Numbered from the stretch's first letter, positions 493 through 61,750 are shown. The stretch is DNA of 64,000 bases from an uncultured Gemmatimonadaceae bacterium (GCA_963781585.1 CAWAGQ010000005.1:192001-256000); one strand, 5' to 3'. Numbers and translations: made by a program. Notes: generated by a model from the sequence alone, not told the origin.

Positions 493-2331
493 CTACGGTT
501 TCGAAGCCTGACGCTTGAGGGGACTGAGATCGAGCTCGAAGATCGTGGAATTGGTGGGCCGCTGCGCCGTGTAGAGCACCGTGCGGCCATCTGGAGACAC
601 TTCCATGTGGTCACCGGAAACCACGCCGGGCAGGGAAGCGATCTCCCGGGGTGCATCACCATTCAATGGTACCGAGAAAAGGCGCAGCGTCTTGTCGCCG
701 GCATGGCGCCCGATCATGAGGACGTGACGGCCATCGGGATGAAACGGACCGAAGGGCTCTCCCGAGTTGACCGCTTCGAATGGGAGATCGACCGTGCGGA
801 CGGAGTCGCCGCCTGCCGTCATCACCTGGATTCTGCCGCGGCGACCTTCACCGGCCGACAGCAGGAAAAGCAGGCGTGCGCCGTCCAGCGACGGGTGACC
901 GGCAACAAGCGGCAGCGACACCGGCAGACGGGTGGTTGCGCCGCTTTCGACGTTGAAGACGTACTCGCCCTCGGCGGTGCCGAATTCCAGGAGCCCGTCC
1001 GTCATGAAGAACCCTCGCTTCGTCATCTGTGCGGGCAGCTCGCGCAAGGGGTGCTCGGCACCGTCCAGCGTGACCTCGAACACCGTGCGAATGCCGCCTT
1101 CGAACGCTCGCCAGAATCGAACGGCCTTCGAGTCGCGACGCCAGTGGATGGCGCCGAGCATCGCCGAGCCGGCGCTCAGAACGCGCGCTCGCCCTGTCGC
1201 GGCCTCCAGCAGGCCCAGTGCAGTGCGCCCGTCGGCCCACGTGACGATCCATCGCGAATCTGGTGACCAGCGCAACCGCGGCGAGCCTGGCGCGAACGGC
1301 AGCGCATATGTGCGAGGAACGGTGCCATCGGCATTCATCACGGTGATTGTGAACCGATCGCCGATTCGCGTCTCCACCGCAAGCTTGTGGCCATCCGGCG
1401 AGTAGTACGGTGTGCGCGAATCGGCGTCACCGGGAAGCAGTTTCCTGACGTTGCCAGTCGCCAGGTCGACCGCGACGACGGAGGTTGGCGTGGTGCCGGC
1501 AACCGCGAAGCGCCGCATTCGGCCTTGCACGGGATCGATTCTCGACCACGACCCGGGCTGGAGCGCGAACTGGCCGGTCTCTCCACTGGGACCCCGATAG
1601 CTCATGCGGCCTACCGCCTGATCACCTCGGACGGCATGATAGAACGTGAATTCGCCATCGTAGCTCGCACGCTGGCCCACCACGGCCGGGACCGACAAGA
1701 GCGTCTCGGGTTTCCCACCCTCGATCGACACGCGCTCCACGACTGAACCGGTCTTTGCCGTCGCGGGCAGGTGCGTATACAGATGCTTCCCGTCGGCGGT
1801 CCAGTCCACGTACGAGAGACTCAGCTCGTAGTGCGCGACGACCCGTTCCGGGCCTCCACTCGCGGGGACGATCGCCAAGTCATGGCTCTGTGACGCCGTA
1901 CCAACCACAAAGGCGATCATCTTCCCATCCGGGGAGAATCGCGGCTCATGCCCGGGGCTCACGCTCACCCGCTGCGCCGTTCCCCGCGCGGCGCCGGTCG
2001 CGGGATCCACCGGCAGCGTCCAGATGTGTGATGCGGTACCGTCTTCATTCTCACGGTCGAAGACGATGCGGTCGCCCTGGTACGAGACCGAGAAATCGTC
2101 GAATTCGCCGCGCGCCACGAAGGACGCTCGTTTGGCCGCGACGTTGAAGGCATACAACGTATCGTTGGTCACATAATACACCGCGCGCCCGTTAGGCATC
2201 GGCGCGAAGTCCCAGACTTCGACGCCGGGTAGCGAGGCAACCTCGCGCAGCACAGGCTTCTGCGCGCCTGCGGCGAGGGGGATCATGGCGCACACAAGCA
2301 TGATGGTGCGATTCACGGCTCGGGGCTTCAT
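493..2331 (-). CDS. Secreted TolB-like/PD40 beta-propeller protein
   Basis: Signal peptide (…IPLAAGA-Q) after a GGAGG RBS. Repeated SPDG/WSPD/FHPDG blades. Confidence 0.8.
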   Translation of the reverse strand: MKPRAVNRTIMLVCAMIPLAAGAQKPVLREVASLPGVEVWDFAPMPNGRAVYYVTNDTLYAFNVAAKRASFVARGEFDDFSVSYQGDRIVFDRENEDGTASHIWTLPVDPATGAARGTAQRVSVSPGHEPRFSPDGKMIAFVVGTASQSHDLAIVPASGGPERVVAHYELSLSYVDWTADGKHLYTHLPATAKTGSVVERVSIEGGKPETLLSVPAVVGQRASYDGEFTFYHAVRGDQAVGRMSYRGPSGETGQFALQPGSWSRIDPVQGRMRRFAVAGTTPTSVVAVDLATGNVRKLLPGDADSRTPYYSPDGHKLAVETRIGDRFTITVMNADGTVPRTYALPFAPGSPRLRWSPDSRWIVTWADGRTALGLLEAATGRARVLSAGSAMLGAIHWRRDSKAVRFWRAFEGGIRTVFEVTLDGAEHPLRELPAQMTKRGFFMTDGLLEFGTAEGEYVFNVESGATTRLPVSLPLVAGHPSLDGARLLFLLSAGEGRRGRIQVMTAGGDSVRTVDLPFEAVNSGEPFGPFHPDGRHVLMIGRHAGDKTLRLFSVPLNGDAPREIASLPGVVSGDHMEVSPDGRTVLYTAQRPTNSTIFELDLSPLKRQASKP

Positions 2332-2553
2332 GGGGGCTGCCTCCGGGGAGGGAATGAGCGCCCGGGGTTGGGCGCGTCGCTCCCTTCTCCCAGTCACGCC
2401 GCGTACCACCGTGGCGGCGCCACGTAACTTGCGGCCGGCACGTGTGTTGGAGAATACCGCGCCCGTTCGGCGCAGTGGGCTGGCGTCACGGTCCGTGTCG
2501 TTCGCCCGCGCCGGTCGTTACGCAGCCATCACGGGCGAGTGCGCGCCCTGCGG

Positions 2554-4641: not shown

Positions 4642-4985
4642 GGCACCCTCTCCTTTCGCGATATCGCGTCCAAGGTGGTTGAGCCCACGCCAATGATCAG
4701 TGTGCCCGGTCACCACCGGAGGTCCGGACACGGGCTGGTTCCTCCGCGCCGGCGAGGTGCCGGCAACGCCGGCAAGGTGCCGGTAACGCCGGCGACATAT
4801 GTCACGAAGGTGCGCCGCGACATTCGGATATGATACCTCACCGACCCGCGATTCCCTGGTCGCCTGCAGCCTGAGGGGGCGAAACTGAGAATGACAAACA
4901 GGTATCGGGCCGTCCCCCGCGGCTTGTACTTCTCCGACGGCCGGTGCCATGTTGGTGTCGTCTTCCACACCCGAAGGAGCGGAAC

Positions 4986-7900
4986 GTGTTGAAACTCCCC
5001 CTGGCGCACCGTTCAGCCGGTCGCCCGTTCGCCTGGCCGGTGCTCGCACTCCTGGCCGCACTCCCGATCCTCCTCCCGCTGGCCTCCACGCCCGCCCAGG
5101 GCGGCGCGACCGCCGGTGCGCAGACCGCGCCGCTCACCGCCTCCAACGGCAAGAAGATCCTGACGGTCAACGACTACGCCCGGTGGCGCAACATCGAGGG
5201 CGCCCAGATCTCCGGCGACGGCAACTGGGTGGCCTACGTCCTCCGCTTGACCAATACGCTGCCTAACGACTCGAAGCCGGTGCTCCACGTCCTCAACCTC
5301 GCCTCCAACCAGGACGTGGCGATCACCAACGCGAGCAACCCGACGATCTCGCCGGACGCCCGGTGGATCGTCTACCAGGTGGATTCCATGCCGCCGCGAG
5401 GCGGACGCGGCGGACGCGGCGGTGCTCCCGGCGGGAATCCGCCCGGTGACACCACCGGCGTCACGCCCCCCACCGCACCGGCGCCCGCTCCCTCGCCCAC
5501 CCCCGGGGCACCGCCCGCCCAGGGCCGGGCCGGCGGCGCGGCCGGCCCCCAGCCCATCCACCGCATGGAGCTGCGTGAGCTCTCCACCGGCCGCACCCAG
5601 CGATGGCAGGACATGCAGTCCGCGATCTTTTCTGCGGCGTCCACCCACCTGCTGCTGCGTCGCCGCCCGGGAGGACCCACCGGCGGCCGCGGCGGACGCC
5701 CCGGCGGACCGGGCGGTCCGCCTAACGCCGGCGGCGGCGCGGGCAATGAAACCAACACCCCGGCCGGCACCGATGCCGTGCTGCACAACCTCACCACCGG
5801 ACGCAGCCAGTTTCTGGGCAGCGTGGGGGATGCTGCCTTCAATAGAAAAGGCGACCTGCTCGCCTACACGGTCGATGCCGCCGTCCGGGACGGCAACGGC
5901 GTCTTCGTGGTCGATCTCCACACCGGCGCCACCTTTCCGCTCGACAATGACGACCGGACCTACAACCATCTGGCGTGGAGCGACGACGGCTCGGGCCTGG
6001 CCGTGCTCAAGGGCAAGGCAGCCGACAAGATGCGTGAACGGCAGAACGTGCTGATGGTCTTCCCCGACCTCCGCAGCTCGTTAGGTGAACCGGAGCTGGC
6101 TCCGGCCATTCTCGACCCGGCGGCCGCACCCGACTTCCCGAAAGGATGGGTGGTGAGCGACCGCGCTCCGCTCTCCTGGAGCGAAGACAACAAGCGCGTC
6201 TTCTTCGGCGCCATGCCCGAGACGCCGGCCCAGGATACCACCCGGCGCCGCAGTACCGACTCCATCCCCGACGTGGACGTGTGGCGCACCCAGGACGAAC
6301 GCATCCAGTCGGTGCAGATGATCCGCGCCAACGCCGACCGGAATCTCACGTTCCGGCAGGCGTTCGACGTCGCCGCCGCGAAGTTCGTCGCGCTGTCCGA
6401 CTCCACCATGCGTGACCTCGAGGTCGCGCCCGACGGCCGCTGGGCGGTGGGCCGCGATCCGCGCCCCTATCATCTCCGACTACAAAGCCCCCGCAGCCGA
6501 CATCTATCGGGTGAATACATCGACCGGCGAGCGCACACTGATGCTCAAGGACCAGCTCACCGGACAGCACATCTTCGGGATCTCGCCCGACGGAAAGCAG
6601 TTCCTCTACTGGAAGGACGACAAGTTCCAGGCCTACGATCTCGACGCGGGGACATCGAGAACACTGGGAACCGGCGCACCGAGCTTCGTCGACGCGGACT
6701 ACGACCATCCGGGCCCCAGGCCATCCTATGGCCTCGAGGGCTACGCCAGCGACGGCAGCGGCGTCGTGGTCGCACACAAGTATGACCTCTGGCTCCTCCC
6801 CCTCGACGGCGCCGCGCCGGCACGGAATCTGACCAACGGCGTCGGCAGTCGCGGCGAGATCCGGTTCCGCTACGTCCGCACCGAACCGATCGACTCGATG
6901 GCCCCCCGGCGTGTCCGCACCGGTGACGAGATCGACCTGTCGAAACCGGTCACCCTCTCCGCGTACGGCGAGTACACCAAGAAGGCCGGCTTCTATCAGC
7001 TCGCCAACGGCCAGCTGAAGGAGATCGTCTACGACGACGCGGCCTTCAGCACGCCGAACCGCGCCACCCACGCCGACAAGTTCCTGTTCACCCGGCAGAC
7101 GTTCGTCGAATTCCCCGACCTCCGCGTCTCGGGGCCGGACTTCAAGGACGCCAAGAAGATCACCGACGCCAATCCCCAGCAGGCCGAATACAACTGGGGG
7201 CACCGCATCCTGTTCGACTTCAGGAACAAGGACGGCCGCCGGCTCCAGGGCATTCTCGCACTGCCTGACGACTACAAGCCGGGCGAGAAGCGCCCGATGA
7301 TCGTCAACTTCTACGAGAAGAACTCGCAGAACCTCCACCGCTACTCCGCGCCGTCGTTCCTCGCCAGCATGGGTTCGTCGCCGATCGAGGCGGTGAGCCG
7401 CGGGTATATCACGATGCTCCCCGACGTCTACTTCCACACCGGCATGTCCCACAGCGACATGCTCGATTGCGTCGAGGCCGCGACCCGGAAAGTGATCGAG
7501 ATGGGCTACGTCGATCCGAAGCACATCGGCATCAACGGCCACAGTTATGGTGGAGAGGGCGTGGCGTTCATCGGGACCCGTTCGCGCCTGTTCGCCGCGG
7601 TCGGCATGGGCGCCGGCGTGACCGACCTGTTCACCGACTTCAGCCAGAGCTGGGGATGGTCGTACCAGGTCACCGGCGGGAGCGGCGCCAACGGCAACCA
7701 GTACTATCTCTATGGCCAGGGACGGTGGGGCGTGTCGCCGTGGGACAAGCCCGAGCTGTTCCACTTCGAATCCGCCCTCACCCACGTCCGCGAGGTCACC
7801 GCGCCGTTCCTCATCATGCACGGCACCGCCGACCCCACCGTGTCGTTCAGCGAAGGGATGAATTTCTACAACGCCCTCCGCTACAACGGCAAGAACGCCA

Positions 7901-8145: not shown

Positions 8146-11100
8146 ATGACCGGTACGACCGCCGTCCCGCGAAGCAACTGGGTCACCCGAAGCGCCGATG
8201 CGTTGCGCCGGCGCTTCGATGCCCTCCAGCTCAAGCCGGTGGTCACGGTCGGATTGCTCGGCGCGATCGCCGGCGGAGCGGCCTGGCTCACACAGCGCCA
8301 GGCGCGCGGCTCCTGCGACGCGCTCCCCTTCTCGTTCATCGACTTCGAGCTCACGTTCTCCCGGCAGTCCTTCCTTGCCCTGCTGCACTCGGCCAGGCCG
8401 TGCGGCACCGGCGCCGTGAACAGCCTGGTCTCGTCCGATCTCCTGTTCGCGCTCACCTACGCGTTGTTCCTGAGCGCGCTGTATCTCTGGGGCGAACGCT
8501 TCCTCCGGCGCTCACCCAATAACGAGCCACTCGGCACTCCCCTCTCGTTCTCGTCCTCGGCGCTCGTCATCCTTCCGTTCGTCATCGCGCTGCTGGACGG
8601 AGTCGCCGAAAACATCCCGCTGTGGGTCGCCGCCCAGCCGCTGGATTCGTCGGGCGCGACGCAGTGGCTGGTGGAGCTCGGCTCGATCGGCGCCGCGCTC
8701 AAGTGGACTGGTCTCGGCATCTTCGGCCTGGGATTCATCGGGATCCTCGCACGCGGCGCACGCGGTCGCGTTCTCTGGCGGCTCCGCTACAGCGTGATCG
8801 CCGTCGCCGCCGGCGCCCTGGCGCTGCTCGCCGTGTCGCAGGGGCAGGACATGCTGCAGCGGCTCGTCGAGGGACTCCACCCGCTCCCCCGGGTGCTGTT
8901 TGCCGTCGCCAGCCTGACGCTGACGGCCATCGTGGTCTGGTACAGCGCCCGGGTGATCACCCTTGTTCGGCTGGCGCGCGAGTCCGGGACGGATGCCCCG
9001 CATCGGGACGCCGCGGCGCGCGCCATCGATCCCTGGGAGCGCTTCTTCGAGCGGTACCTCCCGCGCATTCTGGGCGTGGCGGTCCTCGTGCTGGCCGGTG
9101 CGGCGTTTGCCAGAGCGGCACTCGCGCCGGTCCAGTTCGTTGTCGCGGCGGTGGTCTCGTACTTCGTGCCGACTGGAATCCACCTCGCGCAGCGCCGGCG
9201 CGCCGCCCGGTATTCCCCGCCGGAGGCGGTCGCGGTCGCGCCGGCTGCTCCCGGCGGGGCCGCTCGGGGCGTCGGATCGGTGCACCGCCACGGACCGGAG
9301 ACGCCGGACGACGACCCCGATCGCGGTCAGGATACGGCGGCCATGCTGCGAAGCCGTGCGCGGATCGCGCTCGCCGGCGCCGCGTTAGGCATCATCGTCG
9401 TCTGGCCAAGTCGAGTGTGGCCGTGGACCTGGCGCTACGAAGCGGTCGATCTCCTCATGCTGCGCCTCGGTGCGTGGTTCGCGCTCGTCGCCAGCTGGCT
9501 GCTGTACTACCTGATTACCTATCGGCGCGCGCTCATGGCCCGATACCTCCCCCGTGCCCGCCCGCGCGAGGAACTGGAGCGCCAGCTGGTCACCGGCTAC
9601 GCCGCGGATCACCTGCCGCCCGTCGTGAAGCGGGTCGCCGCGACCGCTGTAGTCGTGAGCCTCCTCATCCTGCTGATCACGACCTGGCGCGCGGTGCCGC
9701 TCGGCCGCGCGCTGGGCCCGCTCCCGGTGGTGGCCTTCGCGGTCGCCAACGCCGTGTTCATTGGCAGCCTGATCGCATACCTCGCCCGCAAGCATCGCCT
9801 CCCCCTGGTTTCGATGCTGCTCGCGCTGGCGGCGCTGTTCAGCCGATGGAACGACAATCACGACATGCGCCGGATCGCCGGGAGCGCGCCACCCGACACG
9901 GTGCATCGCTCGGGCCACCTGCGCGCCCGCTTCGACGCGTGGCTGCGCGCCCGCGCCGCCGAAGACCCGGGCCGAGACACCATCCCCGTGATCCTGGTGG
10001 CGGCGGCCGGCGGCGGACTCCGGGCCGCCTACTGGACCGCGCTCACCCTGGCGACCCTGCAGGATCGCGATTCCGGCAACGGCTTCGCCCGCCACGTCTT
10101 TGCCATCTCCTCCGTCTCCGGCGGGAGCGTCGGTGGTGCCCTGTTCACCGCGCTGGTCCACGACCGGAGCGAGAGCGCGGAGAATCTGTGTGTGACCGGC
10201 GACAGTCTCCCCCGCCGAATGATCCGCCCGGGACGAGGGCGAGCGCGGCGCGTCGGTCCCATGGTGCGGTGCGTGCATCGCTTCATGAACGACGACTTCC
10301 TCTCGCCGGTGCTGCTCAAGACTGCCGCGCCCGACTTCGTGCAGGGATTCCTGCCTTTCCCCATCGGAGCGTTCGATCGCGCGACCGCCCTGGAGCAATC
10401 GTGGGAGCAATCCTACGAGCAGATGACGCGACATCCGACCTTCGGCCAGGGCTACCTGTCGCTCTACACGCGCGACAGTACCGAGACGCCGTTGCTGCTC
10501 CTCAATACCACGCACGTGCAGACCGGACGGCGCTACGTGACCGCGCCGTTCGTCGACGACGGGGTGTTTCTCGATGCGCGCAGCGTGCACCAGGCGCTCG
10601 GCGCGGACCTCCCGCTCTCCACGGCGGTCCACAACAGCGCGCGGTTTCCCTTCGTGAGCCCGGCCGGACGCATCGAACGGCGCGACGGGCAGAGCTATGG
10701 ATCGCTGGTGGACGGCGGGTATTTCGAGAACTCCGGGCTGACCACCCTCGGCGACGTCAGGCGCGAGGTAGACTCGCTGCTGCAGCAGCACCGAAACGCG
10801 GACGGTGATCTGCTGGCGGCAGCCGCGATGCGCGCACGGGTCGTCGTCCTCTATCTCTGCAACGATCCGCTCGCCTGCCGGCGCGACCTCGCAGCCGACA
10901 CGTCCCTTTCCACCGATCGGAGCATAGCGGCCGAATGGCTCTCCCCGTTGCTGACGCTCCTCAACACGCGAGATGCACGCGGAACGCTCGCCCGGGCGCA
11001 GACAGAGCATGCACGCGGCGAGGATTTCTTCCAGATCAACGTCTGCGACAGTATTCCACTGGCGCGCGAACCGGCCTCACCCACCGAGACGGAGCGGCTG

Positions 11101-13986: not shown

Positions 13987-15504
13987 ATGCGACCATCCGG
14001 GGTGAGTCAGGTCGCGGCCAGATGGCCGAGCTTCAGGTTACGCGCGTTCGCCGCCGCGACCGTCCTGCTCGTGGCCGCCGCATCGGCGTCAGGCGCGCAG
14101 CTCATTACGCCGAAGACGGTGCCAGTCCGTCAGGCGCAGCAGTTCGAGATCTTCCCGTCCGATCGGGCGGGGATGGCCGGAGTATCGATCGCGCTCGACG
14201 ACACGGTGCTCGATCCGTTCGCAAATCCCGCAAAGACCGTCCGCGTCCCGGGAGGCCTCGTCCAGATCTCGCCGTTCGTTCACTCAGTGAGTCTCGCGGG
14301 TGGAGGTGGGCGCACCATTCCGGTGAGCGCGTTCGCCTCGTCAGGCGGGTGGTCCGGCGCCGCCCTGGTCTCGCTCCAGGAGCTCGACCGGCCCACGCGG
14401 AGCACCGGCGCCCCGCTCAGCGAGCAGCACGGCACCAACGAGTACCTGGCCGGTACCCTGGCGCTCCGGCTCTCTCCTGGATTCTCCGTCGGCCTCGGCG
14501 TCCACTGGGCCGACCTGAGCGCGGTCGACGGCGTCGACAAGCTGTACAGCGGGAGCGACAGCCTGCGCGAGGCGGGTCACCAGCTCGACCTGCGCCTTGG
14601 TCTGCTCAGGCAGTGGGGCGTTGGACGGTCGTTCGAGCTGCTGGTGCTCCGAAACACCTATGACATGCGCCACGATGTGCACTACCCGGCCCTCTATCGG
14701 TACACGCCGTGCTGCCCGGGGCCGCCCCCCGAGATCTTCCCGGAGCACGAAGAGCACAACGCGGACCGTACCAATACGTGGGGCGTGCACACGGCATACT
14801 CGCAGCCGGTGGGCGCTCATGGCTGGCGTGTGGGCTGGCTGGCCACCATGAACAAGCTCACCCATCCCCGCATCCCCAACTATACGCTGGTCAGCCTTCC
14901 CCGCGATCCGGGGTTCACCAACGCCTTCAATGCCGGCGCCGGGATCGCCCGCCTCTCCGGCGGAACCACGTTAGGCATCGATGTCGTGCTCGAGCCGATG
15001 TGGAGTCACACCTGGGCAACCGCCGCGCACGACACCATGACCGCGGTGGACGGCATCATTCACGCCGGAGCACGCACCGTCGATAATCACTTCCGGTTCG
15101 CGAACACGCACCTGCGGGTGGGGTTCGGCCAGGACATCCCCATCACCGCGGATTCCGCGACCACGCTCGGCCTCCAGGCCGGCCTCGGCCTCTACTCCAT
15201 CAAATACCGGCTCAACCAACAGAACTACGTGTCGTACGTCTCGCGAACCCAGGATGAGAACTGGATCGAGTGGACGCCCACCCTCGGCGCTCGCCTGCGC
15301 AGCCGGAATGTGGAGGTGGCCTACACCTTCAGCATGACATGCGGGCCGGATTGCAGCCGAAACCACGAGCCCGTGTTCTACCCGCCCCCGGTGCCGCTCG
15401 AGGGGGACGGGGGCGGTGTCATCGCGGCGCCTAACGCACCGCTCACCTTCGACGGCGGGCGCGCAACCATGCATCGGATCACCGTGTCTTTCCGGATGCG
15501 CTGA
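13987..15504 (+). CDS. Secreted, probable outer-membrane beta-barrel protein
   Basis: GAGGA RBS, signal peptide ending ASGA-Q, many amphipathic strands and a C-terminal ITVSFRMR. Confidence 0.6.
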   Translation: MRPSGVSQVAARWPSFRLRAFAAATVLLVAAASASGAQLITPKTVPVRQAQQFEIFPSDRAGMAGVSIALDDTVLDPFANPAKTVRVPGGLVQISPFVHSVSLAGGGGRTIPVSAFASSGGWSGAALVSLQELDRPTRSTGAPLSEQHGTNEYLAGTLALRLSPGFSVGLGVHWADLSAVDGVDKLYSGSDSLREAGHQLDLRLGLLRQWGVGRSFELLVLRNTYDMRHDVHYPALYRYTPCCPGPPPEIFPEHEEHNADRTNTWGVHTAYSQPVGAHGWRVGWLATMNKLTHPRIPNYTLVSLPRDPGFTNAFNAGAGIARLSGGTTLGIDVVLEPMWSHTWATAAHDTMTAVDGIIHAGARTVDNHFRFANTHLRVGFGQDIPITADSATTLGLQAGLGLYSIKYRLNQQNYVSYVSRTQDENWIEWTPTLGARLRSRNVEVAYTFSMTCGPDCSRNHEPVFYPPPVPLEGDGGGVIAAPNAPLTFDGGRATMHRITVSFRMR

Positions 15505-15611: not shown

Positions 15612-17753
15612 TTACCTCCCCGCTTTCCCTCCAATCGTCGCCTGGGTCTCGAGCCGGATCGGCAACCGCCGCACGCGCGTTCCCGTCAACCGGAAGATCG
15701 CGTTCGCCACCGCCGGACCGATCTGCGGCACCCCGGGCTCACCGGCTCCCCCGGGCTCTTCCTCGCTATCGACAAGGAAGATGTCGTATTCCGGCGCCTC
15801 GGTGATCCGCACCATCCGGTAGTCGTTGAAGTTCCCCTGCTTCACGCGGCCGTTCTCGATCGTGATCTCGCCATACAGCGCCGCCGTGAGACCGCCAATG
15901 ATTGCCCCCATCAGCTGCGCTTCGACTATCCCCGGGTGCATGACGCGGCCACAGTCGGCCACGCACCACACCTTGTGTACGCGCACCCGATTGTTCTGCA
16001 CCGACACCTCGGCCACCTCGGCCACATACGACCCATCCAGCTCGGCGATCGCCAGCCCGCGTGCCCGGCCGGCCGGCGCCGGGGTCTTCCATGCCGAGCG
16101 CTGCGCCGCCACCTCCAGCACGTGTTTCATCCGCGGCGCGCCCGACAGCAGTTCGAGCCGCACATCGAGCGGGTCGCGATTGGCCGCGTGGGCCAGCTCG
16201 TCCATGAAACTCTCGATGAAGAACGCGTTCTGCGACGGACCCACCGACCGCCAGTAGCCCACCGGCACCGCGATGTCGGGCTTGCTGTAGTCCACGTGGA
16301 GATTGGGAATGGCGTATGGCGTATTGGAGATGGCGTCCACCGCCGGGCCGTCCACGCCCCCGCGTCCGCCGGAAATCGGCGGCGTGGCAACGCGCGCGCG
16401 CAGCGCGACCACCTTCCCCTGTGCGTCCAGCCCACCCTGGAATTCCACGTGGGCCGCCGGCCGGTACTGGTCGTGCTGCATGTCCTCCTCGCGTGTCCAC
16501 AGCACCTGCACCGGCGCGCCGATCTTCTTCGACGTCTCGACCGCGTCCTCGACGAAATCGGTGCGCGAGCGCCGCCCCCAGCCACAGCCCAGGTACGGCA
16601 CGTGCACCGTCACTTTGTCGATCGGCAGACCGGTGATCTGCGCTGCCGCGCTCTGGGTCCCCTGCGGGTTCTGCGTCGGCGCCCAGATCTCGCAGCGGTC
16701 GGCGCGCACGTCGGCCGTACAGTTCATCGGCTCCATCGTCGCATGGGCGAGATACGGCGCCTGATACGTGGCGTCGATGCGATGCGCCGCGCCCGACAGC
16801 GCGGAGTCGACGTTTCCTTCACTCCGCGCCTGCGTCCCGGGTTGCCGAACGAGCTGAGCGAGGTTGCTGAAGATCTCGTCGCTGTTCATCGCGAAGCCGC
16901 CGCTCTGCCACTGCACGCTCAGTGCGCGTGCTCCCTTGATCGCCGCCCAGGTGTTCTCGGCCACCACCGCCACACCCTGCGAGACCTGGACGACCTGCTT
17001 CACGCCGGGCACCGCGCGCGTCTTCGTGTCGTCGAACGAGCGGACCGAATCACCGAACACCGGGGGATGCACCACGGTGGCGAACAGCATGCCGGGAACG
17101 CGCGCGTCGATCCCGTAGGCGGCACGCCCGGAGACCTTCTCCTTCGTGTCGACCAGCGGGATCCGCTTGCCGATCAGCTTGAACTCTTTCGGATCCTTGA
17201 GCTGCGGCTGTGACGGTACCGCCATGGCCGATGCGGCGTCGGCCACCTCGCCGTATCCCACCGACCGTTTCGAGGCATCGTGGTACACCCGGCCGGCCTC
17301 GGTCCGACAGGCGGACGCGCTCACGCCCCATTTCGCGGCCGCCGCGGCCACCAGCATCTGACGGGCAGTCGCGCCGGCCTGCCGCAGCGCCATCCATGCG
17401 TTCCCGCGCACACTGGAGCTCCCCACCGTCATCATGCGGCCGTATTTCCGCGGGTCCGCATCCGCCTGCACGATGCGCACCTTGCTCCAGTCCGCGTCGA
17501 GCTCCTCGGCCACGATCATCGGCATGGCAGTCCGGACGCCCTGTCCCATGTCGGAGCGCCCGGACCAGATCGTCACTGACCCGTCGGTGTCGACCCGCAC
17601 GAAGGCGTTAGGCTGAAGCGGCGCCGCGGTGCGCGTACTGCGTTCCGGCCGTCGCGCCACATCGGGGAAATAGACGCCGAGGAACAGACCGCCACCGGCG
17701 ACCGCGCCGAGCTTCAGGAAATCGCGGCGGTCGAGCTTGGAGATCGTGGTCAT
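15612..17753 (-). CDS. iorB: Isoquinoline 1-oxidoreductase beta-like molybdopterin subunit (xanthine dehydrogenase family), Tat-exported
   Basis: Tat motif DRRDFLK; DMGQGVRT, HATMEPMNC, GYWRSVG and GGAGEPG motifs. Confidence 0.92.
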   Translation of the reverse strand: MTTISKLDRRDFLKLGAVAGGGLFLGVYFPDVARRPERSTRTAAPLQPNAFVRVDTDGSVTIWSGRSDMGQGVRTAMPMIVAEELDADWSKVRIVQADADPRKYGRMMTVGSSSVRGNAWMALRQAGATARQMLVAAAAAKWGVSASACRTEAGRVYHDASKRSVGYGEVADAASAMAVPSQPQLKDPKEFKLIGKRIPLVDTKEKVSGRAAYGIDARVPGMLFATVVHPPVFGDSVRSFDDTKTRAVPGVKQVVQVSQGVAVVAENTWAAIKGARALSVQWQSGGFAMNSDEIFSNLAQLVRQPGTQARSEGNVDSALSGAAHRIDATYQAPYLAHATMEPMNCTADVRADRCEIWAPTQNPQGTQSAAAQITGLPIDKVTVHVPYLGCGWGRRSRTDFVEDAVETSKKIGAPVQVLWTREEDMQHDQYRPAAHVEFQGGLDAQGKVVALRARVATPPISGGRGGVDGPAVDAISNTPYAIPNLHVDYSKPDIAVPVGYWRSVGPSQNAFFIESFMDELAHAANRDPLDVRLELLSGAPRMKHVLEVAAQRSAWKTPAPAGRARGLAIAELDGSYVAEVAEVSVQNNRVRVHKVWCVADCGRVMHPGIVEAQLMGAIIGGLTAALYGEITIENGRVKQGNFNDYRMVRITEAPEYDIFLVDSEEEPGGAGEPGVPQIGPAVANAIFRLTGTRVRRLPIRLETQATIGGKAGR

Positions 17754-38802: not shown

Positions 38803-40251
38803 CTACTCCACCACCCGCTTCACGATGGTCCCGGCCGCGAGCGACTCGTTCACTTCCACGCCGTTGATCAGCGCCACCTCGGCAAGGGGGATGACCGACG
38901 GGTAGGTCTGATTGAACTCCGTCACCGTCATGGCCCGCGGCAACGTCACGAGTGTGATGCGCTGAGGCTTCACGTTCAGTGCCTGCGGATCGGTCAGTTG
39001 CTGGAACGAGGACATCGTCTGTCGGAACGCTGCATCGTACCGGCTCTCCATCGCCGTCGTGGAATAGCCGAGGATCCGGTACGTACTCCCGCTCAGACTC
39101 ACGAACGCCACCCATCCACTCAGGGCCCCCTGGTCGGTCTGGGCAGTGAACGAGCCGACAGCAGACGGCAGACCGTTGATGCTCGAGGTGCCGGTGCGCT
39201 GTCCGCTCAGGCCCTGCTGGCCAAGGAACGTCGTGAGGGCCTCGGACGGAGGCGTGGTTCCCGCCAGTGAGAGCACCAGCACCGCATCCTGCGCCGAGCT
39301 GACCCCCACCACCTGGTCCGCCTGGTTCGCGGTCTTCCATCCGCTGGGAAAATCAAGACGGAATCGCAGCGTTGGGTGGAGGAATGTCGTGCCGCGGAAG
39401 TATCCCAGACGCGGGTCCTCCCCGAAAACGAGTCCTCCGATGTGCTGAAGGTATTGGTCGCGGTCGATCTTCAGCCCGCTGGGGAGTGGGCTCGCGGCGG
39501 CGATGCGCTGCTCTGTCCTGGCGACCCGGTCACCGGGGTCTGGATGGGTCGATAGCCAGCCCGGGGTCTTTCCGCCGCTCGCGTCGCTGATGCGCTGCAG
39601 GGTCTCGAACATGCGTTCCATGGCGTGCGGGTCATACTGCGCCTGCAGCGTGTAGCGGAATCCCAGGTCGTCGGCCTGCGTTTCCTGATCCCGGCTGAAC
39701 TTCAGGAAGAGGACGTTCATGGCGTCGCTGGCCAGATTGCCGAACTGTTGGAGTTGCGGACTCACGATCATCCCGACCCCGAGAGCAAGTCCGGCGAGTT
39801 GCTGCCGCGACATTTCGTGCACCTGATGCTTCGCGGTGATGTGCCCGGTTTCGTGTCCCAGCACGGACACCAGCTGTGCCTCGGAATTCGCGTAGGTCAG
39901 CAGCCCCCGGGTGACGAACACGGGGCCGCCGGGCAGCGCAAAGGCATTCACCGACGCATCCTCGACCACCTGGTACGACCACGGCAGGCCGGGACGCTCC
40001 GATTTCGGCCCCAGCAGCATGCCTAACGACGACACGTACGCCTGCAGCGCCTGATCATCGGTGAGCCCGATGGTCCGAACCACCTCCTCCTTCCCCTGCT
40101 GGCCGAGGGCGATCTCGTCCGACTCCGAGATGAGCGACAGCTCCCGCTTCCCGGTGACCGGATTGGTTGCGCACGCCGCCAGGGCGAGGGTGAAAGCGAC
40201 ACCGCGGAACGCGGGACGAATCAGCAAGCGAGAGCCCTGAGACATGCGCAT
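38803..40251 (-). CDS. M48 family metalloprotease lipoprotein (BepA/LoiP-like) with C-terminal extension
   Basis: Lipobox LAAC-ATNPVTG; VNAFALPGG, HETGH, FSRDQETQAD and LSTHP. Confidence 0.92.
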   Translation of the reverse strand: MRMSQGSRLLIRPAFRGVAFTLALAACATNPVTGKRELSLISESDEIALGQQGKEEVVRTIGLTDDQALQAYVSSLGMLLGPKSERPGLPWSYQVVEDASVNAFALPGGPVFVTRGLLTYANSEAQLVSVLGHETGHITAKHQVHEMSRQQLAGLALGVGMIVSPQLQQFGNLASDAMNVLFLKFSRDQETQADDLGFRYTLQAQYDPHAMERMFETLQRISDASGGKTPGWLSTHPDPGDRVARTEQRIAAASPLPSGLKIDRDQYLQHIGGLVFGEDPRLGYFRGTTFLHPTLRFRLDFPSGWKTANQADQVVGVSSAQDAVLVLSLAGTTPPSEALTTFLGQQGLSGQRTGTSSINGLPSAVGSFTAQTDQGALSGWVAFVSLSGSTYRILGYSTTAMESRYDAAFRQTMSSFQQLTDPQALNVKPQRITLVTLPRAMTVTEFNQTYPSVIPLAEVALINGVEVNESLAAGTIVKRVVE

Positions 40252-51309: not shown

Positions 51310-51320
51310 CCCTCGTCGCG

Positions 51321-51954: not shown

Positions 51955-53640
51955 CTAGACTTCTCCCGCCTTGCGAATCTCCATGATCCGATCCGCGGTT
52001 CGCATCGCCAGGGCGAGAATCGTCCACGTGGGGTTCTTGTCCGCCTGCGAGACAAACGGTCCGCCGTCGGCGACAAACAGATTCTTGCAGTCCCACGCCT
52101 GCGACCAGGAATTCAGCACCGACGACTTCGGATCGCTCCCCATCCGCACTGTGCCCAGCTCGTGAATGATCGAGCCCCCGGTGCTGATGCCGTATCCGCG
52201 CTCTTGCGACGGCATCGGGGAGAACACTTCGCCGCCCATCTCCGACACCAGCGCGCGGAATGTCTCCTGCATGTGTTTCACCTGGTTGATCTCGTAATCG
52301 CTCCACTTCCAGTGGAAGCGCAGCACCGGGATTCCCCAGATATCCGTGCGCTCGGGATCCAGCTCGCAGTAGCAGTCCTCGTTGGGAATCTGCTCGCCGC
52401 GGCCGGAGAATCCGATGGTGGAGCCGTAGTAGCGTCGATAGTCGTTCTTCAGCGACGCGCCGTAGCCGCCGCCCGGTTCATACCGTTCGATCCCCCCCAT
52501 GAACCCGTACGACGGCACTCCCAGTCCGCCCCACACTTCGATGTGATAGCCCCGCGGAAAATCGAGCTTCTTGTTGTCCACCCACCACGGCATGTAGATG
52601 TGCCCGCCACCCACGCCATCGCAGTTGTGCGACACGTGATCCATCAGTTTCGGAATGAAGCCTGATACATCCGTCCCCGTGGTGTCGGTCAGATATCTGC
52701 CCACCATCCCGCTCGAGTTGGCCAGCCCCTGCGGAAACGCCGACGACCTGGAGTTGAGCAGCAGACGCGCCGATTCGCACGCGCTCGCCGCGAGCACCAC
52801 CACCCGGGCCCGCACCGTCCGGTCGCGCCCCGACGTCTTGTCGATGTACGACACGCCCGACGCCAGTCCGCGACTGTCGACCGTGACCTCGTGGACCATC
52901 GCGTTCGTGATGATCTTCAGTCGTCCGGTCTGCATGGCCGGAAAGAGCAGGACGTTCGGCGATGTGAAGTTCGAGTTCGTCATGCACCCGCGATTGCACT
53001 CGCCACAGTAGTGACACGGCGCGCGATTGCCTAACGGCTTGGTGATGATCGACAGGCGCCCGGGGATGCACCAGATGCCCAGTTTGTCGGCTGCCTGCTT
53101 CACGTAGAGCTCGTAGCACCTCGGCTTCGGCGGAGGCTGGAAGATTCCGTCGGGATGGTTCGGCAGGTTCTCCCTGCTGCCGAAGATGCCGATCAGTCGG
53201 TCGATCCGGTCGTAATACGGCCGTACGTCCTCATACGAGATCGGCCAGTCCTCGCCCAGACCGTCCAGGCTCTTGCGCCGGAAGTCGTCCGGGCCGAAAC
53301 GGAGCGAGATGCGTCCCCAGTGATTGGTGCGTCCGCCCAGCATCCGGGCGCGCCACCACGAGAAGTTCGTCCCCGGGGCCCGCGTATAGGGCTCCCCCTC
53401 CACGTCCCAGCCGCCAATGCACGCATCGAACTCGCCGAACGGACGCTCCGGCGTCGATGCGCCGCGGCGCGGTGACTGGTACGGCCAGCGAAACATCGCG
53501 CTGTCCTTGGTATTGTCCCACCAGTCTCCTGCCTCCAGCACGACCACCCGCGCGCCCGCCTGGGTCAGTCGGTACGCCGCCATCCCGCCGCCGGCACCAG
53601 AACCGACGATGCAGACATCGTAGATTTCGTTCTGGATCAT
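51955..53640 (-). CDS. GMC family FAD oxidoreductase (glycoside 3-dehydrogenase-like)
   Basis: VGSGAGGG, RMLGGRTNHWGR, IHELGTVRMG and KNPTWTILALA. Alternative start at 53649. Confidence 0.9.
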   Translation of the reverse strand: MIQNEIYDVCIVGSGAGGGMAAYRLTQAGARVVVLEAGDWWDNTKDSAMFRWPYQSPRRGASTPERPFGEFDACIGGWDVEGEPYTRAPGTNFSWWRARMLGGRTNHWGRISLRFGPDDFRRKSLDGLGEDWPISYEDVRPYYDRIDRLIGIFGSRENLPNHPDGIFQPPPKPRCYELYVKQAADKLGIWCIPGRLSIITKPLGNRAPCHYCGECNRGCMTNSNFTSPNVLLFPAMQTGRLKIITNAMVHEVTVDSRGLASGVSYIDKTSGRDRTVRARVVVLAASACESARLLLNSRSSAFPQGLANSSGMVGRYLTDTTGTDVSGFIPKLMDHVSHNCDGVGGGHIYMPWWVDNKKLDFPRGYHIEVWGGLGVPSYGFMGGIERYEPGGGYGASLKNDYRRYYGSTIGFSGRGEQIPNEDCYCELDPERTDIWGIPVLRFHWKWSDYEINQVKHMQETFRALVSEMGGEVFSPMPSQERGYGISTGGSIIHELGTVRMGSDPKSSVLNSWSQAWDCKNLFVADGGPFVSQADKNPTWTILALAMRTADRIMEIRKAGEV

Positions 53641-53872
53641 CCCTGTCATTGTGCTCGCGAGTCGCTCGGATCCTGGGTTCGCTGTCCCTCGCGGCGGATC
53701 GCCACGAGTCGCGCGCCAGGGCGCACCGCGCCATGGGCTACTCTCCAATCCTCGCCTATTGAAGCCGGGGACGCTACCCTGACGCCCCCTTTTCGGCCGG
53801 AGACGGGTCCGCGTGAATGCAACGACGCGACCCAGGCCGCTCCACATGACTCCCGCCGGCCGATCACGTCAA

Positions 53873-54898
53873 CTAGAACTCGATCGAGAGACCAAGCCGG
53901 GTTGGCGTCATGATCGGCGCAATGCGGACTCCCCTGGCCTCACTGAATTCTCCCCGCGATCCCGGCTTGAGACGCGTGCGGCCCCGCGCCACCGCCGCGT
54001 CCGCCACCGTGGCTCCGATGCCGATGGCCAGCGGATAGTCGCTCGCCCAGTGCACCCCGGTGTTCACCATCGCGAACGACAGAATTCCCAGCAACGCGTA
54101 CCCCACCGGCCGCACGAACCGGTTCTCCGGATAGTTGCCCGCCACCACCCACACCGTCGCCACCGCGGCCGCCAGATGACCTGACGGAAACGCGTCGAAC
54201 GCCGGGGTGTTGCGCGCGTAGGCCGCGAGGCTGGGGAACGGACGCCACCGCCCGCGCCGCACCGTGGCTTCTGATGGTGTCTGCCGCCCGAACGTGTGCT
54301 TCAGGCCCTGCGTGATGATGCCTAACGTGAAAAGCGACTCGGTGATCTCGCTCGCGGTCCGCAGCGCCCGGTAGTCGTTGTGCCAGACCCCGACCACGAA
54401 GAAATGCCCCGCCACCGCCATGCTCATCCACCCATCACCGAGGAAATACATCGCCGACGAAATGGTCGTGGGAAACGGCAGCACCTTCACGCCGGCGACC
54501 ACCAGGTTCGCCGACGGATGCGTCGGTGGAATGTCCAGATGTCGCGCGACGTTGCGTGTCTTGTCCAGGACCCACTCGTCGGCCGCGATCAGACCCAGCG
54601 TGCTGGTGGTGATCACCGCCCACCCTCTCACCCGATCGCGACGGAAGGCGAGATCCATCGTCCGCCCAAGCGTCCCGGGAACGTTCCGAAACGCCTGCAG
54701 GCGTCCCGGCCGCGTATACGCAAACCGGCCGAACGCCCCCAGGTCCACCTCCTGGGCCGCCCGTGACCCGTGCGACCCGTTGGGCTTCACGCACGGCGCC
54801 GTGGAATCCGCGTCCGGGCAGCTGTCCTGAGCCGCGAGGACCCCCGGTACCAGGATCCAGACCACCAGTACGGACGCAAGGCGCCGTGCGATACGCAT
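53873..54898 (-). CDS. PAP2 family phosphatase-like protein
   Basis: KHTFGRQTP, FPSGH and HWASD. The true start appears to be ATG 54898, inside ORF 53873..55810. Confidence 0.85.
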   Translation of the reverse strand: MRIARRLASVLVVWILVPGVLAAQDSCPDADSTAPCVKPNGSHGSRAAQEVDLGAFGRFAYTRPGRLQAFRNVPGTLGRTMDLAFRRDRVRGWAVITTSTLGLIAADEWVLDKTRNVARHLDIPPTHPSANLVVAGVKVLPFPTTISSAMYFLGDGWMSMAVAGHFFVVGVWHNDYRALRTASEITESLFTLGIITQGLKHTFGRQTPSEATVRRGRWRPFPSLAAYARNTPAFDAFPSGHLAAAVATVWVVAGNYPENRFVRPVGYALLGILSFAMVNTGVHWASDYPLAIGIGATVADAAVARGRTRLKPGSRGEFSEARGVRIAPIMTPTRLGLSIEF

Positions 54899-54969: not shown

Positions 54970-55728
54970 CTACCGCCGGCTGGTCGAACCGGCGGCCGGC
55001 GGAAGGCTCCGCAGCACGCTCTCCGCGCTCAACACGCCTAACGCCGCACCCGAAAGTACGTCGCTCGTCCAGTGATCGTTCTGATAGATGCGCGACACCC
55101 CCACCAGCGTTGCCGCACCGAAGAACACCGCCCGCAGCATCGTCCGGTGACGCGGGTGAGCACGGCCCAGCTGGCTGGCCAGCGCCGTCGCCGCCGCGAA
55201 CGCCCCGCTCGTGTGCCCGGACGGAAACGACGTTTGGCTCCCGTCGAAGAAGCCGCGCCCCGGAATGTACATGTCCGGGTCCCCGGGATGACTCTTCGGC
55301 CGTCCTCGACCGATCAGCCCCTTCGTCAGCTCCGTCAGCACCGCGCTCAGCAGTACCGCGTGAGTCGTCACCGCTCCCAGATGCTGCATTACACTGTCGT
55401 GACCCACACGACCCACCAGCCAGAGCGTACCGCCCGTCACCAGCGGCGCCGCACCACCGATCGAACTCACGTCCAGCGAGACGTGGCGCAGCGTCGCTCC
55501 CCCGTGCACGTTCAGCTTCTGCGACTCGTCCGACAGCCGCACATCGAACAGTGACACCGTCGCCGACGCCGCCAGCGAGATCGCGCCCACCACGAGCAGG
55601 GGACGCACGCTCGCAGCCGCCGGAGCCGGGAGGCGCGTCGTGACCGTGTCGCCGCCCTGCGCCGCAACATCTCGGCCCAGGACGGCTCCCACCACTACCA
55701 ACGTCAGACCGCAGCGCCTCACATTCAT
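54970..55728 (-). CDS. PAP2 family phosphatase
   Basis: KGLIGRGRP, SFPSGH and SRIYQNDHWTSD. Confidence 0.92.
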   Translation of the reverse strand: MNVRRCGLTLVVVGAVLGRDVAAQGGDTVTTRLPAPAAASVRPLLVVGAISLAASATVSLFDVRLSDESQKLNVHGGATLRHVSLDVSSIGGAAPLVTGGTLWLVGRVGHDSVMQHLGAVTTHAVLLSAVLTELTKGLIGRGRPKSHPGDPDMYIPGRGFFDGSQTSFPSGHTSGAFAAATALASQLGRAHPRHRTMLRAVFFGAATLVGVSRIYQNDHWTSDVLSGAALGVLSAESVLRSLPPAAGSTSRR

Positions 55729-55837
55729 GACCACCTCGTCGGACGAGCTCAGCCAAGCCTGCTACACTCCTAAGACTCGGCCCTCTCGCGCCGCCTCGCA
55801 ATGGCGGCATCCCCGAAACAGGGCGTCCCTCCTGGGT

Positions 55838-60323: not shown

Positions 60324-61750
60324 GTCCGTCTCGAGACACGGTCGAGTCCGGAGCGCCGCGCCGGCTCCTCGACCGCCCTGCAACCGACCGACCGCTGATT
60401 GCTGTTCCGGCGGGCGCCGTGCTGTCGCGCGATGACGCCCAGGCACTCATCCGGCGCGTCATTGACATGTCGCACGCCGAGACGGTCAAGGTGATCATCG
60501 GCGGCGGGTACAGCGCCAACATCCGCTTCGCAGACAATCAGATTTCCACCGCCGGGAGCAGCACCGACTTCAACATCCAGGTCGAGAGCGCCTATGGCCC
60601 CAAGCACGCGATTGTGGTCACCAACGACACCAGCGACCAGGCCCTGAGTCGTGCCGTCGAACAGTCCGAGCGCCTGGCGCGGCTGTCGCCCGACGACCCC
60701 GAGGCCATGCCACCCCTTGCCTCCCAGACCTATCAACCCGTTGGCGCATACTTCGATTCGGCCGCCGACATGACGCCGGACGAACGTGCACGAGTCGCGC
60801 TCACGGCCCTCGATCCGGCTCGCAGGGCCGGTGACCTCAAAGCGGCTGGCTTCCTCGTTCTCAATGCCGGGTGTACCGCGCTCGGCAACAATCACGGCCT
60901 GTTCGCCTATCACCGCTCCACCAACGCGAACTACACGCTCACCGTCCGCACCGCCGACGGCACCGGTTCCGGCTGGGCCGGCGCCGAGCATAACGACGCC
61001 GGTAAGGTCGCCTTCGACGCCGTGAGCCGGCAGGCCATCGAGAAGGCCAGACTCTCCCGACAGCCGGTCGCGATCGAACCGGGACGCTACACGGTGATCT
61101 TCGAACCCCAGGCCGTCGGTGACCTCTGCCAGCTCATCGGCTTCTACCTGGACGCCCGCTCCAGCGACGAGGGACGAAGTCCGTTCGTCAAGCAGGGCGG
61201 CGGCACCAGGATCGGCGAGAAAATCATCGACGAACGGGTCGATATCTACGCCGACCCCTTCGACCCCATGGTGCTGGCTCAGCCGTTTGACTTCGACGGC
61301 CTGCCGTTAGGCAGACAGGATTTCGTCCGCAAGGGCGTGCTCCGGACGCTGTACTACTCCCGCTTCTGGGCGAAGAAGAAGGGCGTCGATCCCACCGGCG
61401 CACCCACCTCGTTCGTCATGAGCGGCGGACAATCGAGCCTCGAGGAGATGATCGCCAGCACACCCCGCGGCGTCCTCGTCACCCGCCTCTGGTATCTCCG
61501 CGAGGTCGACCCCAGGACCATCCTCTACACCGGCCTCACGCGCGACGGCACCTTCCTCATCGAGAACGGAAAGATCACCAGGGCCATCAAGAACTTCCGG
61601 TTCAACGACTCACCCCTGATCATGCTCAACAACCTCGAGATGATCGGCCGGCCTGTACGACTGGCCGGCACCGAGGCCGGTGGAGCGGTCGTCGTCCCGC
61701 CCATCAAGGTCCGCGACTTCAACTTCACCAGCCTGTCGGACGCGGTCTAG
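60320..61750 (+). CDS. tldE: TldE/PmbA family protein
   Basis: ATGA overlap with tldD; RFADNQI, EPGRYTVIFEP, FDFDG and TGLTRDGTFLIENG. Confidence 0.88.
   Translation: MSPSRDTVESGAPRRLLDRPATDRPLIAVPAGAVLSRDDAQALIRRVIDMSHAETVKVIIGGGYSANIRFADNQISTAGSSTDFNIQVESAYGPKHAIVVTNDTSDQALSRAVEQSERLARLSPDDPEAMPPLASQTYQPVGAYFDSAADMTPDERARVALTALDPARRAGDLKAAGFLVLNAGCTALGNNHGLFAYHRSTNANYTLTVRTADGTGSGWAGAEHNDAGKVAFDAVSRQAIEKARLSRQPVAIEPGRYTVIFEPQAVGDLCQLIGFYLDARSSDEGRSPFVKQGGGTRIGEKIIDERVDIYADPFDPMVLAQPFDFDGLPLGRQDFVRKGVLRTLYYSRFWAKKKGVDPTGAPTSFVMSGGQSSLEEMIASTPRGVLVTRLWYLREVDPRTILYTGLTRDGTFLIENGKITRAIKNFRFNDSPLIMLNNLEMIGRPVRLAGTEAGGAVVVPPIKVRDFNFTSLSDAV

Follow-up and report, generated by a model that had tools for sequence, protein, structure and literature searches.

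An over-represented asymmetric octamer, GCCTAACG, in Gemmatimonadaceae coding sequence: a possible DNA uptake sequence

The octamer GCCTAACG in a 64-kb Gemmatimonadaceae window

The DNA analysed here is a 64-kb window (CAWAGQ010000005.1:192001-256000) from an uncultured Gemmatimonadaceae bacterium, with 64-69% G+C and a uniformly negative GC skew, in which genes were called from third-position G+C (GC3 frame plots) together with Pfam matches. These include genes for peptidases, PAP2 proteins, a Ser/Thr kinase and a TldD/PmbA protein (60320-61747), the best matches of which, at 72-91% identity, carry the name Gemmatimonadaceae bacterium. Scattered through the genes on both strands is a short asymmetric word, GCCTAACG, which is the subject of this report. 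The window contains 18 copies of its heptamer CCTAACG, 10 on the + strand and eight on the - strand, which divide into 16 of GCCTAACG and two of ACCTAACG (6079 on - and 25099 on +). Of the 22 CTAAC pentamers present, 18 are part of CCTAACG. A preliminary description of this DNA had given the same 18 heptamers with their coordinates and strands, the same division into 16 and two, and about 22 pentamers, and the recount agrees with it exactly.

To judge these counts, CCTAACG was compared with 100 dinucleotide shuffles of the window, in which it averaged 3.08 copies with a maximum of 8, so that none of the shuffles reached 18. A codon-preserving null was built from 300 shuffles of synonymous codons within each window gene, which keep the protein and the codon usage and also retain the TTA and CCT codons that the word itself adds. 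Under this null, 0.6 copies of GCCTAACG are expected where 16 are seen (z of about 19), making it the top-ranked 8-mer of the window, and an order-2 Markov model expects 0.3. The comparison with a codon-preserving shuffle had been proposed in the preliminary description, whose own chance figure of 2-3 copies proves too high. The word is present once per 3.6-4 kb, and the 15-nt flanks differ among all 18 copies. A 13-kb stretch without the word (40022-53030) was considered as a foreign island and rejected as such, since by a rough estimate the gap is not significant for 17 gaps, and the largest gap in the Gemmatirosa sample described below is also chance-like.

Distribution of the octamer among relatives and on two megaplasmids

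Relatives were obtained by scanning a species-representative genome collection once with the TldD/PmbA protein of the window, which gave 80 loci of at most 21 kb each, 32 from Gemmatimonadota metagenome-assembled genomes (MAGs) and 48 from Bacteroidota, Massilia and others. The 32 Gemmatimonadota loci contain 133 copies of GCCTAACG in 512,696 bp, with at least one copy in 26 of them, compared to eight copies in 854,920 bp of the 48 other loci; high-GC outgroups have a single copy in 203 kb. The octamer is the top 8-mer in individual loci, for example L004 (16 copies in 16.6 kb) and L019 (14 in 21 kb), and it ranks first again in the pool, where 503,591 bp contain 149 copies and about 5 are expected. 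Profiling across related genomes, another check named in the preliminary description, showed the word to be enriched in relatives, with one clade lacking it. Four loci labelled Gemmatimonadaceae (L023-L026) have no copies in 73 kb, and in a quick single-gene TldD tree L023, L025 and L026 form a well-supported clade that is sister to all motif-positive rows, while the fourth, L024, is nested in a low-density subclade. The word is family-wide, with dialects, and is missing from the basal clade of L023, L025 and L026 and from the outgroups.

Individual orthologous sites show how the word comes and goes. At the Gly-Leu-Pro-Leu-Gly-Arg-Gln stretch of TldD, the window and 11 of the 32 Gemmatimonadota loci that have a homolog share the codons CCG TTA GG (GGC in 10 of these loci and GGT in one), and around this Pro-Leu-Gly at residue 330 the codons for the adjacent Gly, Leu and Arg differ freely from locus to locus. 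In the adjacent PmbA-like gene, a Met-Pro-Asn-Val site reads G CCT AAC G in seven of the 28 loci with a homolog, and the window has CCA there. The word is patchy across the clades of the tree at the TldD site, indicating that sites turn over.

A sample that is independent of these syntenic loci was taken from Gemmatirosa kalamazoonensis KBS708, in the form of six 50-kb pieces (L081-L086) of two megaplasmids, 300 kb with 71-73% G+C. Plasmids 1 and 2 together carry 174 copies of GCCTAACG in these 300 kb, or one per 1.7 kb, where a core-masked background expects 0.2-1.2. Within KBS708 open reading frames (ORFs), 125 copies compare with 5.06 under the codon shuffle, which did not exceed 12 in 200 shuffles, and 211 of the 224 CTAAC pentamers are part of GCCTAAC. 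The density of the word is similar on chromosome-like contigs and on both megaplasmids. A plasmid tblastn search with a window protein returned no Gemmatimonadota among the best 15 of 1150 matches.

Crude and unreliable ORF calls covering 92% of the KBS708 sequence do not take in 31-49 of the 174 copies, and that the word is enriched between genes or at their ends is no more than a lead. The crude ORF caller placed 18 of the 174 copies at stop codons (GCC-TAA), and 14 of the 33 TAA stops of these unreliable ORFs lie in GCC-TAA-CG; the same caller misassigned window copies in Pfam-supported genes, and the GC-phase check was noisy. Direct tandem pairs 12-19 nt apart are also present in apparently non-coding KBS708 DNA, for example at 22094-22113 in L081 and 31643-31669 in L083. 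The published single-molecule real-time (SMRT) methylome of this strain lists RGATCY, ATGCAC and CCAGN7TCA as the only methylated motifs, and none of the reported N6-methyladenine (m6A) motifs matches GCCTAACG (PMC3974934). Methylation of the word in Gemmatirosa as m6A or N4-methylcytosine (m4C) is therefore unlikely, because the methylome lists no matching motif.

Coding frames and rare codons

All 18 window copies lie in coding frames, six of them reading CCT-AAC-G (Pro-Asn) on the coding strand and 12 reading nCG-TTA-GGn (x-Leu-Gly) with the word on the template strand (Table 1). The ORF that holds the copies at 5261, 5720 and 6079 has no Pfam match, yet shows clear coding periodicity. The preliminary description had stated that all copies are genic and use these two readings, which holds for 18 of 18 in the window but not as a rule, as the other two open frames are used, rarely, in relatives. 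A crude ORF caller assigned 80 copies in relatives to Leu-Gly, 37 to Pro-Asn, nine to Val-Arg and three to Leu-Thr, with 20 unassigned, so that all four stop-free frames are in use and the restriction to two frames in the window is a sampling effect. When permissive peptide sites were counted, the exact 8-mer was found at 37 of 103 x-P-N-[VADEG] sites and 81 of 450 [SPTA]-L-G sites, and at nine of 320 Val-Arg and four of 225 Leu-Thr sites.

Table 1 Copies of the octamer in the 64-kb window and their coding context
Form	Position (strand)	Gene and orientation	Codon context
GCCTAACG	2190..2197 (-)	sense in PD40/TolB-like gene 493-2409(-)	ATG CCT AAC GGG (M-P-N-G)
GCCTAACG	5261..5268 (+)	sense in ORF 4944-~6420(+), N-terminal propeller part of frameshifted S9 peptidase	CTG CCT AAC GAC (L-P-N-D)
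GCCTAACG	5720..5727 (+)	sense in ORF 4944-~6420(+)	CCG CCT AAC GCC (P-P-N-A)
ACCTAACG	6079..6086 (-)	antisense to ORF 4944-~6420(+)	coding strand TCG TTA GGT (S-L-G)
GCCTAACG	9383..9390 (-)	antisense in gene 8146-11289(+), membrane protein, C-terminus patatin-like by eye	GCG TTA GGC (A-L-G)
GCCTAACG	14969..14976 (-)	antisense in gene 13912-15504(+)	ACG TTA GGC (T-L-G)
GCCTAACG	15429..15436 (+)	sense in gene 13912-15504(+)	GCG CCT AAC GCA (A-P-N-A)
GCCTAACG	17606..17613 (-)	sense in molybdopterin-binding dehydrogenase subunit 15612-17753(-)	CAG CCT AAC GCC (Q-P-N-A)
GCCTAACG	24207..24214 (-)	antisense in CtaG-like gene (ORF 23462-24793, +)	ACG TTA GGC (T-L-G)
ACCTAACG	25098..25105 (+)	antisense in Ser/Thr kinase gene 24798-26423(-)	TCG TTA GGT (S-L-G)
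GCCTAACG	25662..25669 (+)	antisense in Ser/Thr kinase gene 24798-26423(-)	GCG TTA GGC (A-L-G)
GCCTAACG	31973..31980 (-)	antisense in BNR/sortilin-like gene 30856-34704(+)	GCG TTA GGC (A-L-G)
GCCTAACG	32328..32335 (+)	sense in BNR/sortilin-like gene 30856-34704(+)	GCG CCT AAC GCC (A-P-N-A)
GCCTAACG	40021..40028 (+)	antisense in M48 peptidase gene 38803-40461(-)	TCG TTA GGC (S-L-G)
GCCTAACG	53029..53036 (+)	antisense in GMC oxidoreductase gene 51955-53847(-)	CCG TTA GGC (P-L-G)
GCCTAACG	54320..54327 (+)	antisense in PAP2 gene 53873-~54832(-)	ACG TTA GGC (T-L-G)
GCCTAACG	55036..55043 (+)	antisense in second PAP2 gene 54970-55734(-)	GCG TTA GGC (A-L-G)
GCCTAACG	61305..61312 (-)	antisense in TldD/PmbA gene 60320-61750(+)	CCG TTA GGC (P-L-G, residue ~330)

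Both frames favoured in the window call for codons that are otherwise avoided. In the curated window genes, 12 of the 15 TTA codons lie inside the word, leaving three outside it (near 14038, 31390 and 62653); TTA had been described as nearly absent outside the word, with one other codon near 14038, and its rarity stands while the number of exceptions rises to three. In the first window gene list, which had one gene in the wrong frame, Pro is encoded by CCT at 95 of 1178 codons. The preliminary description had further suggested examining whether the motif-forming codons are preferred at Leu-Gly and Pro-Asn, and this is what was found: TTA makes up 5.7-11.3% of Leu codons before Gly compared to 0.2-0.5% elsewhere, and CCT 18-24% of Pro codons before Asn compared to 5-8% elsewhere, in the window, the pool and Gemmatirosa alike (Table 2). 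Neither rise is seen in motif-negative relatives or in outgroups, the positive and negative locus pools having been assigned after the counts were known. A DNA-level force that overrides codon bias, as first proposed for the window, has held in every test run, including the codon shuffles.

Table 2 Share of the motif-forming codons by context
Codon and context	Window	Pool	Gemmatirosa	Motif-negative relatives	Outgroups
TTA among Leu codons before Gly	5.7%	8.5%	11.3%	0/147	6/407
TTA among Leu codons elsewhere	0.4%	0.5%	0.2%	0.9%	0.8%
CCT among Pro codons before Asn	17.6%	21.6%	24.1%	1/40	0/88
CCT among Pro codons before residues other than Asn/Asp	7.6%	7.9%	4.7%	10.0%	6.1%

Orientation, spacing and near-matching words

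In pooled loci with an absolute GC skew above 0.02, 60 copies lie on the G-rich strand and 51 on the C-rich strand (p = 0.45), and the strands of KBS708 divide 79 to 95. No replichore pattern was observed in four plasmid-1 samples, which gave 29/29 and 29/37 in a split that presumes an origin near coordinate 1, and the window itself is balanced despite its constant negative skew. The claim that the word lacks strand polarity, which had been held against Chi and KOPS (FtsK-orienting polar sequences), is borne out. The spacing of copies, likewise singled out for inspection at the start, is near random, with a near-exponential distribution in KBS708 (coefficient of variation, CV, 0.94) and a largest gap of 8.8 kb that is about what chance would give. 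In the pooled loci, 28 gaps are shorter than 600 bp compared to 37 in simulation, a difference that is pseudo-replicated through shared sites and deserves little weight.

The logo of the copies reads Y-G-C-C-T-A-A-C-(G>A>T>C), with no signal further out over 12 nt on either side. The word is not a dispersed repeat, since its flanks are unconserved; there is no flank signal beyond position -1 and all 18 window copies are genic, so that it differs from repetitive extragenic palindromic (REP) elements and miniature inverted-repeat transposable elements (MITEs). Neither is it an RNA feature, because it occurs in both orientations with respect to transcription, and the window gave no matches to Rfam or in a tRNA scan.

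Some words one mismatch away are enriched as well. In the pool of MAG loci and window, ACCTAACG is present 26 times against 2.5-3.8 expected and GCCTAACA 13 times against 1.6-2.5, and these position-1 and position-8 variants still carry TTA or CCT. KBS708 varies at position 8 only, with 23 copies of GCCTAACA (0.1-0.2 expected), 10 of GCCTAACT, four of GCCTAACC and none of ACCTAACG. The three position-2 variants are each absent from the pooled relatives, where 2-5 of each are expected.

Two further candidates were rejected. GCATAACG appeared to be a dialect (47 copies against 4.7 in the pool), but 24 of the 47 represent one conserved Glu-His-Asn-Asp site in the syntenic loci and Gemmatirosa has none, which makes it a pooling artefact. 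GCCTGACG was considered as a degenerate form of the word (GCCTRACG), with 23 copies in the window against 5.2 under the codon shuffle and 144 in the pool against 35-49, but little or no excess in Gemmatirosa (33 against 13-33). Its excess comes mainly from CCT-GAC (Pro-Asp) and is equal or higher in motif-negative relatives (20 of 85 Pro-Asp), and TCA before Gly, which served as a test of GCCTGACG as a variant, is not raised. The share of Pro-Asp pairs written CCT-GAC is 12% in the window and 17% in relatives, and reaches 24% in motif-negative relatives, compared to about 8-10% CCT elsewhere, so the codon-pair preference behind GCCTGACG is separate from GCCTAACG, and it is absent in Gemmatirosa.

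Two other repeated words were noticed. An 8-nt tandem unit, GGGTAAAC, forms short arrays of 3-4 copies at two places in the MAG locus L019, which lie some 5.1 kb and 17.6 kb from one of its ends. Frequent, too, is the palindrome GCTCGAGC, with 14 occurrences in L026 counted on both strands against 1.95 expected from an order-2 Markov model, a null computed for L026 only; on a single strand, L026 and L023 have seven apiece, the window has 11, and the Gemmatirosa samples L081-L084 have 8-18 per 50 kb.

Disrupted genes and other features of the window

The S9 (prolyl oligopeptidase family) gene at 4944-8076 is seemingly frameshifted near 6410-6440, as its coding periodicity follows one frame from about 5000 to about 6420 and then moves on to the next frame, where ORF 6412-8076 contains the Peptidase_S9 domain. 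The junction has no long homopolymer, and the gene is either a pseudogene or affected by an assembly indel. The Amidohydro_3 gene at 12048-13759 is a second disrupted gene in the 64 kb, consisting of two overlapping ORFs (12048-13331 and 13127-13759) that cover profile positions 1-263 and 278-472 and so place a frameshift around 13083-13127. A packed gene trio at 8146-12051 encodes a 1047-aa polytopic membrane protein, then a 150-aa type IV pilin-like protein (11291-11740), then a small Smr-domain protein; the 1047-aa protein has no Pfam or NCBIfam match, and its C-terminal part looks patatin-like by eye. Two AmmeMemoRadiSam genes adjoin each other at 44837-46745, one for the radical SAM enzyme (TIGR04337, E 5e-194) and one for the protein B/Memo-like partner (TIGR04336).

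Discussion

GCCTAACG belongs to a known kind of sequence, the lineage-wide hyper-abundant short DNA word, and in the literature searched we found no earlier description of it, nor of any uptake or iterated sequence in Gemmatimonadota. To our knowledge, uptake sequences are proven in only two bacterial families and the function of HIP1 is still debated; GCCTAACG adds a third, unrelated asymmetric word at comparable or higher saturation, with about one third of permissive Pro-Asn sites carrying it. Literature searches found no link between either the word or Gemmatimonad* and over-representation or uptake sequences, although subscription journals lie mostly outside their coverage, and among the matches listed for the raw word the contexts look, by title, like primers or oligonucleotides, with no match in the supplements of PMC2843746. 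This agrees with the preliminary description, which knew of no described system for the word and which had offered an uptake sequence, a methylation- or repair-driven motif and a nucleoid protein site as candidates. That short list still appears to be the right one, and only the weights have changed.

Our tentative reading is that the word may be a lineage-specific, genome-wide DNA tag, YGCCTAAC(G), of a large Gemmatimonadaceae clade, similar to the DNA uptake sequence (DUS) and the uptake signal sequence (USS) and kept by molecular drive at the DNA level. This is suggested by a short asymmetric word in both orientations, placed in the cheapest genic frames, shared by a family whose sister clade lacks it, accompanied by some enriched one-mismatch forms and equally dense on different replicons. 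The force responsible would act on double-stranded DNA, not on RNA or protein, and would both create and keep the word, installing the rarest Leu codon, TTA, and the disfavoured Pro codon CCT wherever the protein permits (x-Leu-Gly and Pro-Asn-x). A surface DNA receptor of the transformation machinery would prefer fragments that bear the word, such fragments from relatives would be taken up and recombined more often, and the word would accumulate by molecular drive until balanced by codon and amino-acid costs. By extrapolation, each genome would hold thousands of copies. Uptake bias as the driver, natural competence and the receptor itself are what we infer from this pattern. If so, GCCTAACG could, with due reserve, be the first DNA uptake sequence outside Proteobacteria, a self-recognition tag read by a putative surface receptor in Gemmatimonadaceae.

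Published work offers some background for such a tag. Graded over-representation of mismatched forms is described for uptake sequences in excerpts of one study (Bakkali 2007, PMC1939737), and type IV pilus genes are reported, again in excerpts of the sources, for Gemmatimonadota from every environment except marine (PMC10581226) and for G. groenlandica (PMC7844134). The window itself encodes the pilin-like protein at 11291-11740. Several considerations weigh against an uptake tag, however. Type IV pili are common and constitute non-specific evidence, and the pilin-like ORF of the window, which was considered as a pointer to the receptor and set aside, adjoins the membrane protein whose C-terminus looks patatin-like by eye. 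The searches of the literature found no uptake or transformation experiment for any Gemmatimonadota. Seven of the eight close motif pairs in KBS708 are direct rather than inverted, in contrast to the terminator pairs of the Neisseria DUS. The 32 Gemmatimonadota loci are syntenic around one gene, so their pooled counts contain shared orthologous sites and are non-independent. Finally, every genomic property listed above would also fit the binding site of an abundant chromosomal protein.

Such a site, read by an abundant lineage-specific intracellular DNA-binding protein that is nucleoid-associated, chromosome-organising or self-DNA-marking, with selection keeping thousands of copies, is an alternative that we consider rather unlikely. 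Its reader would probably be monomeric because the site is asymmetric. The strand symmetry, the family-wide conservation and the similar density on chromosome-like contigs and both megaplasmids all fit this explanation, the retention of the word at orthologous sites is compatible with it, and the slight, pseudo-replicated deficit of short gaps could hint at selection on spacing; the near-exponential spacing and chance-like largest gap in Gemmatirosa point the other way, and no candidate protein was identified. Of the known organising sites, parS, matS, NBS and SBS occur in small numbers and are palindromic for the most part, and those that are abundant, KOPS and Chi, are polar. We know of no non-polar asymmetric protein site that is kept at about one per 2 kb in bacterial coding sequence, which counts against a binding protein here. 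A polar signal of the Chi or KOPS type, read by RecBCD/AddAB or FtsK, would match the word as an 8-mer of similar length and abundance, but is contradicted by the absence of polarity in the window, the pool and plasmid 1 alike, and is very improbable.

A bias of methylation-linked mismatch repair, as has been proposed for HIP1, in which a 5-methylcytosine (m5C) methyltransferase marks the word and a Vsr-like nuclease converts near-matches to it, appears improbable. The word includes a CpG among its several cytosines, m5C was poorly detected by the SMRT sequencing then in use, so that the Gemmatirosa methylome leaves room for this modification, and the complete absence of the position-2 variants from pooled relatives counts in favour of such a bias. 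The reported Gemmatirosa motifs do not match the word, however, which is also not palindromic, and ACCTAACG and GCCTAACA, the neighbours of the kind that deamination of the complementary strand would produce, show enrichment instead of depletion; for other T-for-C neighbours the expected counts are too low for a test. Pfam searches of the window found no methyltransferase or Vsr gene. That the word is simply a by-product of amino-acid, codon or codon-pair preference or of pooled orthology, with no signal at the DNA level, is an explanation to which we give almost no credence, even though the apparent variants GCATAACG and GCCTGACG did prove to be such by-products. The codon shuffles fall far short of the counts in both the window (0.6 against 16) and the Gemmatirosa ORFs (5.1 against 125), the word is used on coding and template strands in four frames with 18 different flanks in the window, and the effect is missing in the sister clade and in outgroups of the same G+C.

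The consequences depend on which of these explanations is correct. Gemmatimonadota are abundant in soils, and only a handful of species have been cultured. An uptake tag would allow the molecular-drive theory of uptake sequences to be tested on an independent case and would offer a handle for genetics, as constructs could be tagged with the word and these hardly tractable soil bacteria might be transformed by tagged DNA. If a receptor reads the word, the L023/L025/L026 clade, which lacks the word, and perhaps the L024 lineage, in which it may be decaying, would show where that receptor was gained or lost. If GCCTAACG is not an uptake signal, it would represent an undescribed kind of protein or repair site, abundant, non-polar and asymmetric, which would be at least as interesting. 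As a simple sequence marker, the word could also help to bin Gemmatimonadaceae genomes and to recognise foreign DNA in them, and the cultured, fully sequenced carrier Gemmatirosa kalamazoonensis KBS708 makes its function directly testable.

Among known systems, Chi and KOPS resemble GCCTAACG in length, abundance and genic location, but they are strongly oriented with respect to replication and GCCTAACG is not. Cyanobacterial HIP1 (GCGATCGC) is likewise an 8-mer that is hyper-abundant throughout a lineage and present in coding sequence against codon preference, and it has recently been proposed, in excerpts of a preprint, to serve DNA uptake (10.64898/2026.06.24.733823). HIP1 differs in being palindromic and recognised by two methylases, whereas GCCTAACG is asymmetric, differs from its reverse complement and has no match among the motifs that the Gemmatirosa methylome lists. 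The DUS of Neisseriaceae, 10-12 nt long and read by the minor pilin ComP, is also short and asymmetric, present in both orientations, family-wide with variants and often genic. Its copies number on the order of a thousand per genome. It has another sequence and belongs to another phylum, and its close pairs are inverted terminator pairs where those of GCCTAACG are direct. The USS of Pasteurellaceae, with its 9-nt core, shares with GCCTAACG a density of about one per 1-4 kb, a location mostly in coding sequence in the cheapest frames and a graded enrichment of some one-mismatch forms, and in both cases sites are shared between species with turnover and spacing is roughly random to slightly even. 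GCCTAACG lacks the AT-rich flanking segments of the USS, having no flank signal beyond the Y at -1, and it resides in hosts with 66-73% G+C, where its AT-rich core forces the use of rare codons.

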